A DNA stretch of 64,000 nucleotides from NCBI GenBank assembly GCA_036630325.1, contig CP142737.1, forward strand, positions 434,001 through 498,000, read 5' to 3'. Below the pieces are notes generated by a model that was not told the DNA's origin, did not search any database, and worked only from the letters and a program-made list of their open reading frames with translations. This document shows positions 19,501 through 29,622 of the stretch, in pieces (position 1 is the first letter of the stretch; every line of letters begins with the position of its first letter). Both the position numbers and the translations under genes were made by a program. Source of the stretch: Vairimorpha necatrix (Eukaryota).

Positions 19501-20781
19501 TAACTCTTTCTTTGACGCTTTCTGATTGTTTTATTGTTAAATATACTTCGACGGCCTCGTTAGTATTCGAGGTAATACCGTTTCCATATTCGATTCGCCT
19601 GTTTCTGACTATAAGAGGGGTAAGTTCAAGTTGTTTTACCATTGATCTACTCATATAGTTGCTGCTTGCTCCTGTGTCGAATGATAGGGTAATTTGGGTT
19701 TGGTTGACATTTCCCAGTAGTTCGGGCAACCCAATTGGGGTATCTGGTTCTTTAAGAATTAAATTTTTATCATTTCTCTGGGTAACGCCTCCCTTAGAGC
19801 TGTTTAGCGCTCTACAATCTTTCGTGTAATGTCCACGGCTTTTATGAAATGTACAAAATGGTTTCTGTTGGTTGTGTTCTTTTTTATTCTTCATGGATTT
19901 AAAATCCAATTTAACACATGGCTCTTTTCCAAGGTTAATAATTGTCTGTTCTATTTCCTTAATTTGATTCATTATGGATATAGAATCCCTTAGATTAATC
20001 TTGGCCATTTCTAATTTCGTTGTTATATCTAAACCTTGGTAAAAATACTCAGATATTCTACTATTCATATCTTTCTCGGAGATTCTTAAACACCATTTTA
20101 GTTTCGTTGTAAGGTCTTTAATTCGATTATGATATTGTTCGATATATGTAAAATCATTCTGTTTTGTTCTTTGGATCGCATCTAAGTACCAATGGGAATC
20201 CTGTTCGGGATAGGCGCTGTAAATTAGCGCAAGAAAATGCTTTTCTATGTCCAAAATTTTCTTCTTTGGAAGTATATCTAAAAGCGAAGGTGTAACTACT
20301 GAATGCAGCACGGCAATTGAAAGAGATGCTGACCATTGGCATTGTTCCATGGTTTCTTTGAACTCTGAAGTCCATTGAAAAATATCCTGTATTGTTAAAT
20401 CGTTAAGTTCTGTGATAGACTTTGAAAGTTGTAACGAATTTGTAGGATCGGGAGAAAAGGTAAAAGAGTACTGTTTAAAGTCTTTCTTTATTTTTGACAG
20501 ATTTGAACCTGGTTTGTTAAAGCTCCCTGCATGAATAAAATCTTCTTTGTCGGCGTATGACGTCATAATGCCATGTCTTGGCGGTACCTTGTTGGTTTTT
20601 AAAAAGGAAATGTAAATAGATTTACAAGTTGAAGAGTAATTCATATTTATTTAAAAATAATTTTCTTAAATAGTTTTTTCTGAATCAAATCAAATATAAT
20701 TGGTTACACGAGTACCAATTAAAACATTGATCTGAAACAACTATTTCCTTGAGTATAATTGGTCATAGTGAGGGTATGACA
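16584..20781 (-). mobile_element. Ty3/Gypsy LTR retrotransposon A (213-bp LTRs, no tRNA PBS)
   Basis: LTRs 16584-16796 and 20569-20781 look identical, TG..CA termini; PPT AAGGTGGGGGAAAC; gag-PR-RT-RH-IN order; flanks GTCAT/CTATG do not match. Confidence 0.96.
16778..20644 (-). pseudogene. gag-pol polyprotein of element A with one in-frame TGA at 18773-18775
   Basis: CTFHKSRGHYTKDC knuckle, FDTGA protease, FLDD RT, TTDAS RNase H, HHCC and DDE integrase, GPF motif; both ORFs share one frame (FQ*CMSD). Confidence 0.93.
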
Positions 20782-21649
20782 CTATGATCGTGTACACTTA
20801 AACAGAATTAATTATTGTCTTTGATTTTTGACTCTAAAATTACAAAACAGTAAAAAATTACATGAAAACAAAAACAACAAAGTAAATATTTGAAGCATAG
20901 AGTCGAAACACAAGTTAAACCCCCCAAAGCATACTATAATACCTTTATGTCTGTTTTAAAGGTGAATTACATAATGTAATTAATTTTTAAACATGACTTA
21001 ATTATATATTAACTTATTTGCACAAGATGTTTTATTAGTGTGCTAGTTTTTTTAGGTTCAATTCAAAGTTCAATGAATTGTTCCCAAAGAAAAAGATTTT
21101 ACATATAGTTAATATTGTAAATTATGCCTGCTTTATTTATGTTTAGGTATAGTTGTATGATCGAATAAGAATATTCAATAATTTATTGATTTTTTGTTTT
21201 TGGTGAATAAATAGATATTTAGAATATTTCTGTAGGACTGATTTTGTTCAATATGTTAAAAATACGTAGGGCATATTGATTTATGCACTAATATTTATGC
21301 GAACATGCAATCATAAAAGTTGAAACAAACTAATGAAAAGATTATAAAAAATATAAGTGATATTTGCCCAAAATGAAGTTTAAATATTTTATAAAAAAAA
21401 TGTGGCAGAATACCCATAAGAATTTAAAGTAAAAGTTGTAAAAACATACAAAATCGTTTAAATAAAAACAATTTGTAGCCTTGTAAACAAGATGATTGCA
21501 TATAATTACATTTGAAAAAAAGATATGTCACTAGCCTTTTCATATACTAACATTAAATTTGGCATTTAATAGTAATGAAGGTTTTTTTTTGCAAGCAAAG
21601 GGTTCTCTTTCTCACAATTGCATTGTAGTCTCTTGGCTGTTGCATTTTT

Positions 21650-26598: not shown

Positions 26599-27214
26599 TT
26601 ATAACGCGATTAGTAGTAATGTAAATCCAATGACAGAAATAGACACCAATACTTTGTCTGCATTGCTACTTACAGAATCTTCATCAACGTTTTTATCGTC
26701 GTTTTTTACTTTCGTATTCTTTTTTTTCGTTTGCGGGCTAGAAGCTACATTCTTTTGTTGAGAGGTTGGTTTATACTCATAAAAGGTAGACCTTTTGTCG
26801 GTCTGTAATCCATCTATAAACCTAGGTTTGGAATTATAAACAGCTTCGATTGTTTTTTTCGTCATTAGCCATTTCATTGTATTCTTGTATATTATAATTA
26901 AATTTTTCTGGTTTTAACTGAAAAACATTCGGTGTTGGGGCATATGCAAGCATGTATTTGTTGCCTTCAGTCTTGACAATTAGAGCTCCACTATCAAGTA
27001 ATTCTCCGGCGTTTTCATGTACAGCAATTTTCTTAGGCATACTCCATTCATTATCATTTGGCCCCTTTGATTTAATTTCTATTCCTCCTCTACCATCAGT
27101 CTTTATAGAATAGGCCACATTGTCTGTTAGATTGATCAATTCTTCAACGTGTATGTCCAGCTGTTCTTTAAGACTAACATTGTTGAATATGAATACTAGA
27201 AGTTGCAGGTCCAT
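26599..27214 (-). pseudogene. Surface protein with signal peptide and GPI-like C-terminus, split by a frameshift
   Basis: Overlapping ORFs 26834-27214 and 26599-26877 join at an A7 run (26853-26859); GGG motif before ATG; C-terminus SSN followed by a hydrophobic tail. Confidence 0.7.
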
Positions 27215-29622
27215 TTTTATTTACCCTCATAAAAATTTTATTTATATTTTACATGTTTATTTACACTACAAGAAAACATTGTGAATTAACAAACTTAAAC
27301 AATTGAATCAACAAATTTCTTAAAACAAACATACGAGTATTAAGAAAATATTTTGATAACTTTTTACTTATAAGGAATAATTAGAATGTTCAAAGTCGAT
27401 TTTCCATGTCATATAAATCTTATTGTTGGAATGAAAACATAGGTTTATTTATTATAAAATTTTTAAAGAACAACATGTCAAATATCTTTGAATGGCCACT
27501 GCAGGATTTGACATGTGTTACACTTCCTATACTAACTTACCTTAAAAGCTTAACGTGATTTCGACTTGCCATAACCGTTTTTCCCATATCGAGCATCACT
27601 TCAAATGAATTGAATCGCAGTTCATCAACCGTTCCTTTTTCTTCCCATTTTGGTTTGAATTTTTTTCTAAACGGTAGAATTATATAATACCAAACTCTAT
27701 TTCCCACCTTAATGGCATCCTGTTACCGGAATTAGCTTTTTACTAGGGTCGTTTTCTCGTCTGTAAACATCCAAGTTTTTAATCGCTTGCTCCTGAAACT
27801 CCTTCTTATCTTTTGGGAGATGCATTCCCTCTTTATATCTATCCTATTTGAAGCTCTTCCTGTTAAGAATTCTTGGTGCAAACCCCATTGCCCTATGATA
27901 TGATTGCATATAGACTCTGACTACTTTAGGAACTCCTTTTACCCAATCAAATTTCCCCAAATTCTGTAACATTCCTTAATTTTATGGATAAAGTTCTATT
28001 AACCCTCTCAACAAGCCCCGTAGTTGTAGGTTTATTAGGTGAGCCATGTTCCCTTGAATTTTTTTGGTCTTCGCATATTCCTCACATATATAATTTTTGA
28101 ATTCTTTGCCATTATGAAAAAAATAGATTTTTTCATACCATACTTCCTGATTATATTTTTATCTACAAAATAAATTACCGTGTTCTTGTCTTTTGTATAA
28201 ATCGGCACCGCCTCAGCAACTTTCGAAAAGTGGTCAATCATTGTTATAAGAATTTATATCCTTGCTCGTTTTCTCTCAAGGGCCCTAATATGACTATTTC
28301 CTAAATTTCTCCTATTGTCTTTGATACTAATACCACCATATCTCCGAATTTCCTCAGAGGCTTTTCTTTTTAACACGTTTCACATTTATCTACGTAATTT
28401 TTATGTCTCTGCCCAAATTCTTCTAATTATATTTTCATCCAATATTATATTTCATATTCTGTTTTGATCCATGCCCTGATAAATCATGATAAAATTTTAA
28501 TAATACTAACCTCCTATCTGTTTTGATTTTTTTCTTTTGTATTGAATTTATTTCTAAAACAGTCTCCTCATGTTTTTTAAATTCTCTGCTTAGGCGATTT
28601 GTATAGTTTGATGGTTCCGTAATGTATTTAATATCGAAATCATATTCTTGTAGCAGTAATGACCATCTAGCAAACCTAGCTTTTACATTAATAGACTTAA
28701 ACAAATATTCCAAAGCCTGATGATCCGTTTTTAATGTAAATTTTCCTAATAATAGATATTCTCTGAGGTATTGAATCAATTTTATAACTCTAGCAGCTCT
28801 TGTTCAGTAGTAAAATGGTTTTTAATAAACTTTAAGCAATAGTTGTATTGCCCTGTGGTATTACGACCACATGTAAAATTCCATTATTCCCAAAATGGAA
28901 TTTCTTAAATATTTTAAAAAAAATTGTTTTTCTCCCCAACAAAAAGGAAAAAGAGATGCAGACAAAGGACACAAACAATAAACGATTTATTTTTAAAAAA
29001 AGCCCAAGGAATCTATTATAAGTAGCTTACCAGAAGCCTACTATCAACGAGGGTTCATCCCTCGTGACCACCTCAAGTTGAATTCAACGAGGAAAACTCA
29101 TATCAAAGATCAAAAGAAAGAAAAAGAACATACAGAATTTGAAAAAATATACAAGGAACTGGAGTTAAGAATAAAGTAAAAATTTATAACATTTATGAGA
29201 TCCAACAAGATTTAACCATAAATCAACTCCAAAAATTTGAGATGTTAGCTAAAGCAAATGATTAGAATGACGAACAAATGGCTTTGATTTACATGGTTTT
29301 CATGCACGATCCAAGAAAGGATTATTTACCATCAGATTCTTATGTTGCATTAAGAATGTCACTGTTAAATTTTATTTAGCCACCGGAACAAAAAAGACGT
29401 GCTATACATAAATTAGATAATACAAGCCAAATATGTTATTTTAGTATCAAAGAATATTTGAAACAATCGAGGAAATACTTAACAGTTATTCATATTATAA
29501 TGATCTAAAAAAGAGAAGCTCTGCATAAAATGAAAGAAGTGTTTTTAAAGGGACTAGGAGATTTCACACATTTAGAATTAACAAGACAAAATATGATCAG
29601 TAAGGAAATCTATAAAATTTAT

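Follow-up and report, generated by a model that had tools for sequence, protein, structure and literature searches.

How does a long terminal repeat (LTR) retrotransposon start to copy its RNA when a palindrome stands where the tRNA primer-binding site is expected? The question is raised by two Ty3/gypsy elements, A and B, in a stretch of 64,000 nucleotides (nt) from Vairimorpha necatrix (contig CP142737.1, positions 434,001 to 498,000; this whole stretch is the window, in whose coordinates we report all features). The way in which reverse transcription begins defines classes of retroelements, and the known modes are priming by a tRNA, priming by a half-tRNA, and the self-priming of Tf1-type elements, which prime with their own RNA (PMC5445492, PMC6317226; cited papers are represented here and below by excerpts). 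A preliminary description of the window had noticed that both elements carry a perfect 12-bp palindrome at the primer-site position, and proposed that two genomic RNAs could pair there. We confirm and generalise the observation, and we find the interpretation partly supported, in that its comparative predictions held in the sequences compared. On balance we favour the reading in which a compact microsporidian Ty3/gypsy lineage no longer uses tRNA and has the 12-nt palindrome as its minus-strand primer-binding site. The site would work by pairing with itself at the RNA level, probably across two genomic RNAs.

Palindromes at the LTR junctions of A, B and their relatives

Element A is found on the minus strand (16584-20781), and consists of an LTR pair with gag/pol in gypsy order. 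The 5' LTR (20569..20781, 213 nt, TG..CA) ends in GGCA, and a single T (20568) separates its terminal CA from the perfect 12-nt palindrome TATGACGTCATA (20556..20567). The junction on the minus strand reads ..GACATGGCA T TATGACGTCATA CGCC, with no TGG. The 3' LTR (16584..16796) is likewise 213 nt long and matches the 5' LTR with 100% identity. Independent evidence sets the LTR end at 20569: a solo LTR of this family (58823..59034, minus strand), whose 5-bp target duplication GTTAG sets both LTR ends, and five contigs from a second sequencing run (X2), all of which break off exactly there. Contigs of four runs were compared over 20300-29400, and the junction is confirmed by run X1 in a 397-nt contig with 0 differences. 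A polypurine tract, AAGGTGGGGGAAAC (16797..16810), lies immediately upstream of the 3' LTR. The frame encoding gag, protease (PR), reverse transcriptase (RT), RNase H and integrase (IN) extends over 16778..20644 and is broken by one in-frame TGA (18773-18775). This TGA falls in RT between ..APREFQ and CMSDLL in an element whose LTRs are nonetheless identical; two relatives, L032 and L060, are open at that position. The closest protein matches to the pol of element A are microsporidian Ty3/Tf2-type polyproteins, from Nosema granulosis (51%) and then Pancytospora, Dictyocoela and Hepatospora.

Element B, on the plus strand, has a 5' LTR (TGTGG..CCTCA) at 28854..29075, a 3' LTR about 84% identical to it at 36375..36601, and the perfect 12-nt palindrome GTTGAATTCAAC at 29077..29088. 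Its junction reads ..CCACCTCA A GTTGAATTCAAC GAGG, where the LTR ends in CTCA, the spacer is again 1 nt, and there is no TGG. The LTR end of B is certain only to within 2 nt, because TCAAG is common to both LTR copies. The boundary first proposed is supported by L081, which reads ..ACGCCA, A, ATTGAATTCAAT and which we take as a relative of B because its LTR start is B-like (L081 has no RT). Both junctions thus re-read as first described, 1-nt spacer, palindrome and absence of TGG included, and so do the TGG starts that had been given for the junctions at 38447, 41875, 48909 and 55468.

We searched for relatives by scanning with an alignment of 16 pol proteins. The scan found 31 loci in metagenome contigs and one in genome contigs, and no relative in viral contigs. 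The one genomic locus, L032, is a 4143-nt contig filed under a bacterial metagenome-assembled genome, G001, and has a 139-nt terminal overlap from collapse of the LTRs in assembly. In G001, many small contigs carry eukaryotic gypsy pol matches, at least 36 in total; we took 20 of the contigs whole for analysis, and these pol contigs evidently come from a microsporidian-like contaminant. The repertoire of G001 mirrors that of the window, with L032 corresponding to A, L063 and L065 to element D, L038 to element C, and L039 and L067 to element E.

In the clade that holds A and B, all readable junctions (7/7: A, L032, L005, L060, L061, B and L081) have CA, one nucleotide, and a perfect palindrome of exactly 12 nt. 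The junction of L032, whose pol is 48% identical to that of A in amino acids, reads ..CACGGCA, T, TATGACGTCATA, CGCC. In L005 the junction is ..GCGCGACA, T, AATGAATTCATT, in L061 ..CACGACA, A, GATGAATTCATC, GTCG, and in L060 ..CATGACA, T, GCTGATATCAGC, GTCG. Absence of the palindrome from other clade members had been set beforehand as a possible refutation, and it is present in every one that can be read. A sister lineage found in metagenomes has the same layout in 3/3 readable junctions: GGGACA, C, TGTAAATTTACA, CCC in L003, and C, AGTAAATTTACT, CCC and C, AGTATTAATACT, CCC after the LTR in L014 and L006. None of these 10 palindrome-type junctions has the TGG of a canonical tRNA primer site, and none of the eight TGG-type elements (C, D, E and the junction at 41875 in the window; L063, L064, L065 and L067) has a palindrome. 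Among the last four, L063, L065 and L067 have LTR pairs, and the LTR end of L064 is inferred. The junctions of three more clade members, L001, L026 and L062, lie beyond the contig, and a palindrome at 136-147 of L026 was left uncounted. L012 and L020, if laid out like L003, do not extend far enough upstream to include the junction. In domain content the palindrome elements are of the Ty3/gypsy type, with LTRs in TG..CA, a polypurine tract, and the order gag-PR-RT-RNaseH-IN.

The RT-RNase H tree (IQ-TREE, careful search; 38 rows and 425 columns, with five window elements and 33 loci) leaves out fragment C2, L081, L008, L015, L019, L023, L025, L027-L031 and the short G001 fragments. The palindrome clade, with both A and B, has 9 rows and support 99/98 (UFboot/SH-aLRT); its six typed rows are all palindromic and three are untyped. 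The sister lineage has five rows, three of them typed, with support 100/100, and the two together form a group of 14 rows (92/84). A Tf1-like clade (8 rows, 100/100) and the TGG-type group (9 rows, 84/90) fall outside the palindrome clades. The palindrome clades and the Tf1-like self-priming clade share one side of the midpoint root (88/84).

Self-complementarity of the site

The 10 junctions align without gaps. Alignment positions C9 and A10, the CA of the LTR, are invariant, and the spacer is 1 nt in 10/10. All seven clade palindromes fit NN-TGA-NN-TCA-NN with invariant TGA..TCA half-sites, and the core of the sister lineage differs (GTA....TAC). The 12-mers of A and B had been called unrelated, and this has to be withdrawn: both fit the same pattern, and the two elements belong to one RT clade.

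Over the 10 sequences, every base-pair cell of the palindrome is Watson-Crick (60/60). Five of the six pairs vary on both sides, and there is no pair that varies on one side only. The outermost pair occurs as AU, GC or UA, the second as AU, GC, UA or CG, and the centre as AU, CG or UA. The covariation score is 0.66, compared to 0.19 for shuffled alignments, and is matched by 0/500 shuffles; if the partner is slid by 1-3 columns, pairing falls to 30-46%. The palindrome is exactly 12 nt long in 10/10 cases, with the next outward pair never Watson-Crick and a G-U wobble there only in L060. These compensatory changes on both sides indicate that self-complementarity is what selection keeps. The earlier proposal that symmetry is conserved rather than sequence is borne out for the symmetry but only in part as regards the sequence, as A and L032 are identical over 21 nt and the TGA..TCA core is found throughout the clade.

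The comparison of A and L032 isolates the site. Over their first 600 nt the two are identical at 57% of nucleotides, and they have no identical run longer than the 21-nt block GGCATTATGACGTCATACGCC, formed by the palindrome and its flanks; the spacer and the 12-mer of L032 are identical to those of A. The seven codons over this block have no synonymous change between A and L032, whereas nearby conserved residues do show some, which argues for a constraint at the nucleotide level.

Codons come into it because gag opens inside the LTR, which places the palindrome in coding sequence. In the palindrome clade the gag frame opens at an LTR-internal ATG (at 20644 in A) and a single frame, x-M/L-x-S-x (..G I M T S Y A.. 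in A), is read across the palindrome; the elements have no leader. The opening inside the 5' LTR is seen in A (20569-20644, minus strand), L032, L005, L060 and L061. In A, the LTR-internal ATG is directly preceded by AATAAA, with a TATA-like box about 30 nt upstream. The LTR-encoded peptides of A and L032 have 12/26 identical residues and 4 synonymous differences, from which U5 is probably coding. An ATG occurs inside the palindrome in A, L032, L005 and L061 and spans the junction in L060; B and L081 have TTG instead.

The pairing may extend beyond the palindrome. The last nucleotides of U5 can pair with those just after it, with the final A of the LTR and the spacer left unpaired, as in B, CCTC(AA)..GAGG, in L061, CGAC(AA)..GTCG, and in A, GGC(AT)..(C)GCC. 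Homodimers with the 12-bp duplex and flanking arms are predicted in 10/10, with predicted energies of -14.8 to -27.8 kcal/mol.

A candidate priming mechanism and its alternatives

We considered other partners for the site within the elements themselves. As a control we used a gypsy clade (L007, L011, L013 and L022; metagenome contigs) with the textbook layout of Tf1-type self-priming: its junction reads GTAACA, TT, AAGACCAAGCT, and the LTR holds the exact 11-nt complement AGCTTGGTCTT. The longest exact complement of the palindrome in the element's own LTR or RNA 5' region is 5-7 nt (A, B, L032, L005, L060 and L061), versus 11 nt in the controls L011 and L022, and we rejected a Tf1-type LTR complement; the preliminary description had named such complementarity as a result that would refute its idea. 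For element A, the best duplex of the palindrome with the LTR reaches only -7.6 kcal/mol. A second copy of the palindrome, of at least 7 nt, is found nowhere in elements A and L032, and L060, L061 and B have only scattered matches of 7-9 nt in non-homologous places. A second complementary box downstream, as in the fungal GalEa elements discussed below, was also rejected: in 10/10 elements the best candidate within 90 nt downstream matches 6-8/12 positions, which does not exceed what random windows give (P 0.22-1.0).

In LTR reverse transcription, the place where the 3' LTR ends fixes the start of minus-strand DNA. Both the 3' LTR and the family-A solo LTR end at CA, so minus-strand synthesis must start at the spacer, within a nucleotide or two of CA. 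A primer that starts there has to anneal to the palindrome, its 3' end pairing with the 5' half. Since families in one genome differ in their palindromes and yet all are self-complementary, the simplest partner is the same site in a second copy of the RNA. In the mechanism we propose, two co-packaged genomic RNAs would pair through the palindrome in a 12-bp duplex, lengthened by 3-5 bp where the last nucleotides of U5 pair with those just past the palindrome. A cut in one of the RNAs would then fall where pairing of the 12 bp stops, at the duplex's 3' edge, and would probably be made by the RNase H of the element, as in Tf1. The new 3'-OH would prime copying of U5-R of the partner RNA, and primer site and dimer-initiation site would be combined in one sequence. 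In a weaker variant, a single RNA would be cut and fold back on itself.

There is a parallel for the cut in Tf1, where an RNase H-dependent cleavage of the element RNA frees the 3'-OH of the short self-primer; trans priming has reportedly been described for Tf1, going by the title of a paper. A fuller version of our proposal is that priming is reciprocal and in trans, with primer site and dimer-initiation site fused in the 12-nt palindrome and one RNA, once nicked at the duplex end, priming the other; that it derives from Tf1-like self-priming; and that it is shared with the sister lineage of unknown eukaryotes. It may also explain the GalEa site. We put this version forward tentatively, with clearly less confidence than the assignment of the palindrome as the primer site.

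Several points weigh against the palindrome as a self-paired primer site. A long RNA primer poses the unsolved problem of where synthesis of plus-strand strong-stop DNA stops. The arms are uneven, as one of the four arm pairs is paired in 10/10 sequences and the others in 4-6/10. No tRNA gene with which to compare the 12-mers was found in the window or in 21 of the relative loci. LTR ends are proven by at least two copies only in A, and to within 2 nt in B. For L032, L005, L061, L081 and the sister lineage they are inferred from TG..CA inverted termini (for instance TGTCGTGT..ACACGACA in L061) and homology, and the 3' LTR copy of L060 runs off the contig. The placement of B is less secure because of its long branch (1.83). 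Finally, the pair counts are partly ascertained, because it was the palindrome that drew attention to several of the relatives; it is nevertheless present at every readable clade junction.

The alternative that survives best, although we consider it unlikely, is that the palindrome is mainly a signal for dimerisation, packaging or a translation switch, comparable to a retroviral dimer-initiation site that buries the AUG, and that a host RNA annealing there is the primer. Predicted structures are compatible with this: the monomers can close a short stem of the U5 end with the nucleotides after the palindrome, around the palindrome itself, and the dimers are stable. The dimer sites of retroviruses are palindromes in loops (PMC5445492). 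The ATG inside or next to the palindrome in five of the elements also fits a translation switch, but B and L081, with TTG, indicate that what is conserved is not the start codon. Moreover, no other candidate primer site lies within a few nucleotides of where the LTR ends, and a host primer would have to match at least five different 12-mers in two organisms.

That the site pairs with an internal segment of a host tRNA, as in the half-tRNA priming of the copia/Ty5 type, or with another small host RNA, is far less probable. The TTATGA of A and L032 resembles what we take to be the complement of the Met anticodon loop, but the other five palindromes differ at these positions. Such varied 12-mers and the lack of TGG argue against a tRNA, and complementarity to a tRNA would not lead one to expect a perfect two-fold symmetry with compensatory changes. 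Primer sites for half-tRNAs do exist in Ty1/copia lineages (PMC6317226).

Of about the same low probability, or slightly lower, is a site at the DNA level, bound by a dimeric protein that controls transcription. It is suggested by TGACGTCA, which we take to be a bZIP/CRE-type site, and by the invariance of the TGA..TCA half-sites in the seven clade members. However, variation at the two central nucleotides and at the two outer positions leaves the site self-complementary in every case, which indicates base pairing and not half-site recognition; in addition, the core is a different one in the sister lineage, and the site is downstream of the promoter, in coding sequence.

If the window is modelled as a first-order Markov chain, perfect palindromes of at least 12 nt are expected 37.5 +/- 6.6 times per 64 kb, or about 6e-4 per position, a rate at which two palindromes at exactly +2 after an LTR end are not chance, and the relatives settle this. 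That the palindrome is there by coincidence, or as a side effect of constraint on the coding of the gag N-terminus, is hardly credible even though all clade members have the site translated in one frame, given 10/10 readable junctions against that expectation, the seven codons without synonymous change amid conserved residues that have some, and a mirror-image covariation that coding constraint does not give.

Surrounding elements and known priming systems

The surroundings of element B form a three-level nest (27422-38551), in which B, old and broken, sits within and splits element C (minus strand) and is itself split by a 3.4-kb insert. The LTRs of C (about 27422-27529 and 38445-38551) are 87% identical. 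The insert in B is bounded by inverted repeats (32032-32184 and 35314-35465) and has a 239-amino-acid open reading frame on the minus strand (32416-33135). Element C is of the TGG type, with CA followed by TGG in its junction TGGCGACAACGCC (38447, minus strand), and the lone junction at 41875, TGGCACTCGGTATGG, has the same arrangement. On the minus strand, the TGG-type primer site of element D, TGGCGACAAC.. (48892..48908), follows directly after the LTR, with the gag ATG spanning the junction, and that of element E, TGGCACCCGGTACGG.., is at 55450..55466. In the TGG-type elements (48906-48911, 55464-55469 and about 41875; L063, L064, L065 and L067), the gag ATG is formed by the last A of the LTR and the TG of the primer site (ATGGCG.., M-A-..). 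These elements have no untranslated leader, an extreme compaction.

Two further observations concern the ends of palindrome elements. The full-length element A has no target-site duplication in its flanks (16570-16583 and 20782-20800), whereas the solo LTR of its family has a normal one of 5 bp. The 5' flank ends in ..ATCATAG, and the 3' flank, after the 3' LTR, begins with ATGACGTAAC. The 7-mer ATGACGT is common to the 3' flank and the palindrome, offset by 2 nt. The missing duplication and the 7-mer resemble the integrase-independent insertion of Tf1 at homology to the primer site (PMC11042837), although the pattern may also be chance. If A was inserted in this way, the end of its cDNA would have borne a copy of the palindrome. 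An origin of the odd 3' flank from tandem elements was rejected, as neither flank has gag homology. In L014, a perfect 26-nt palindrome, AGTGATGGACACATGTGTCCATCACT (5817-5842), is found where the 3' LTR departs from the 5' LTR; a further inserted element may end there, or the palindrome may mark a junction of the LTR-LTR kind.

The closest precedent for the site is the Conserved Hairpin Site of the fungal Copia element GalEa (PMC5445492). As excerpted, GalEa has no tRNA site and carries a 9-nt box that is palindromic together with the last A of the LTR; a second complementary box (CHSeq2), 12-41 nt downstream, forms a hairpin with it. Both GalEa and the elements described here lack a tRNA-type site and an LTR complement and have a short conserved palindrome where the 5' LTR ends, with variants that differ by paired substitutions (PMC5445492). 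A palindrome at the primer-site position had thus already been described, in a fungal Copia group and not in the animal Gypsy families that the preliminary description mentioned, and this reduces the novelty of our observation. The differences are several. GalEa belongs to Copia, whereas the palindrome elements have the RT-RNaseH-IN order of Gypsy. The GalEa palindrome is 10 nt long including the last A of the LTR, and here it is 12 nt long and starts 1 nt after CA. GalEa needs CHSeq2, and we found none in the palindrome elements. Unlike in GalEa, the palindrome here lies inside the gag frame. The fuller lists of site variants for GalEa may show closer parallels than the excerpts do.

Other systems share parts of the proposal. 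Like the Tf1/sushi group of Ty3/gypsy, the palindrome elements would prime independently of tRNA, from their own RNA, with cleavage where an RNA-RNA duplex ends, and in both the primer site has a short, fixed length (11 nt in the Tf1-like control, 12 nt in the palindrome). They differ in that the Tf1-type site has its exact complement in the LTR or 5' RNA end, and the palindrome is complementary only to itself. In our structure models the site would resemble retroviral dimer sites and U5-leader stems, with a self-complementary sequence next to U5 and U5 pairing just 3' of the primer site. Retroviruses have a separate 6-nt loop palindrome besides the tRNA primer site, according to the excerpted text (PMC5445492), where a single sequence would do both here. 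The dictyostelid Skipper, also Ty3/gypsy, has likewise lost the TGG site, has no LTR complement in the account excerpted, and is suspected of unconventional priming; it has a polypyrimidine tract at that position and not a palindrome (PMC5006619). A phrase search of the literature for palindromic primer-binding sites found no retroelement report beyond GalEa, the term "Conserved Hairpin Site" appeared only in the GalEa paper and one TRIM paper, and a search on the primer-binding sites of microsporidian LTR retrotransposons found nothing relevant.

A palindrome in place of the primer site had thus been reported once before, in a fungal Copia element and, in the excerpts, without a mechanism. 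To this we add that the same solution is found in microsporidian Gypsy elements and their sister lineage, as a trait of the whole clade, and that compensatory changes show the base pairing of the site with itself to be kept by selection. For annotation, pipelines that demand a tRNA match to find LTR elements will misjudge those of the palindrome type. For the biology of these elements, an oddity at two junctions becomes a testable model of a joint primer and dimer site, for which the families at hand provide natural pairs of mutant and compensatory sequences.

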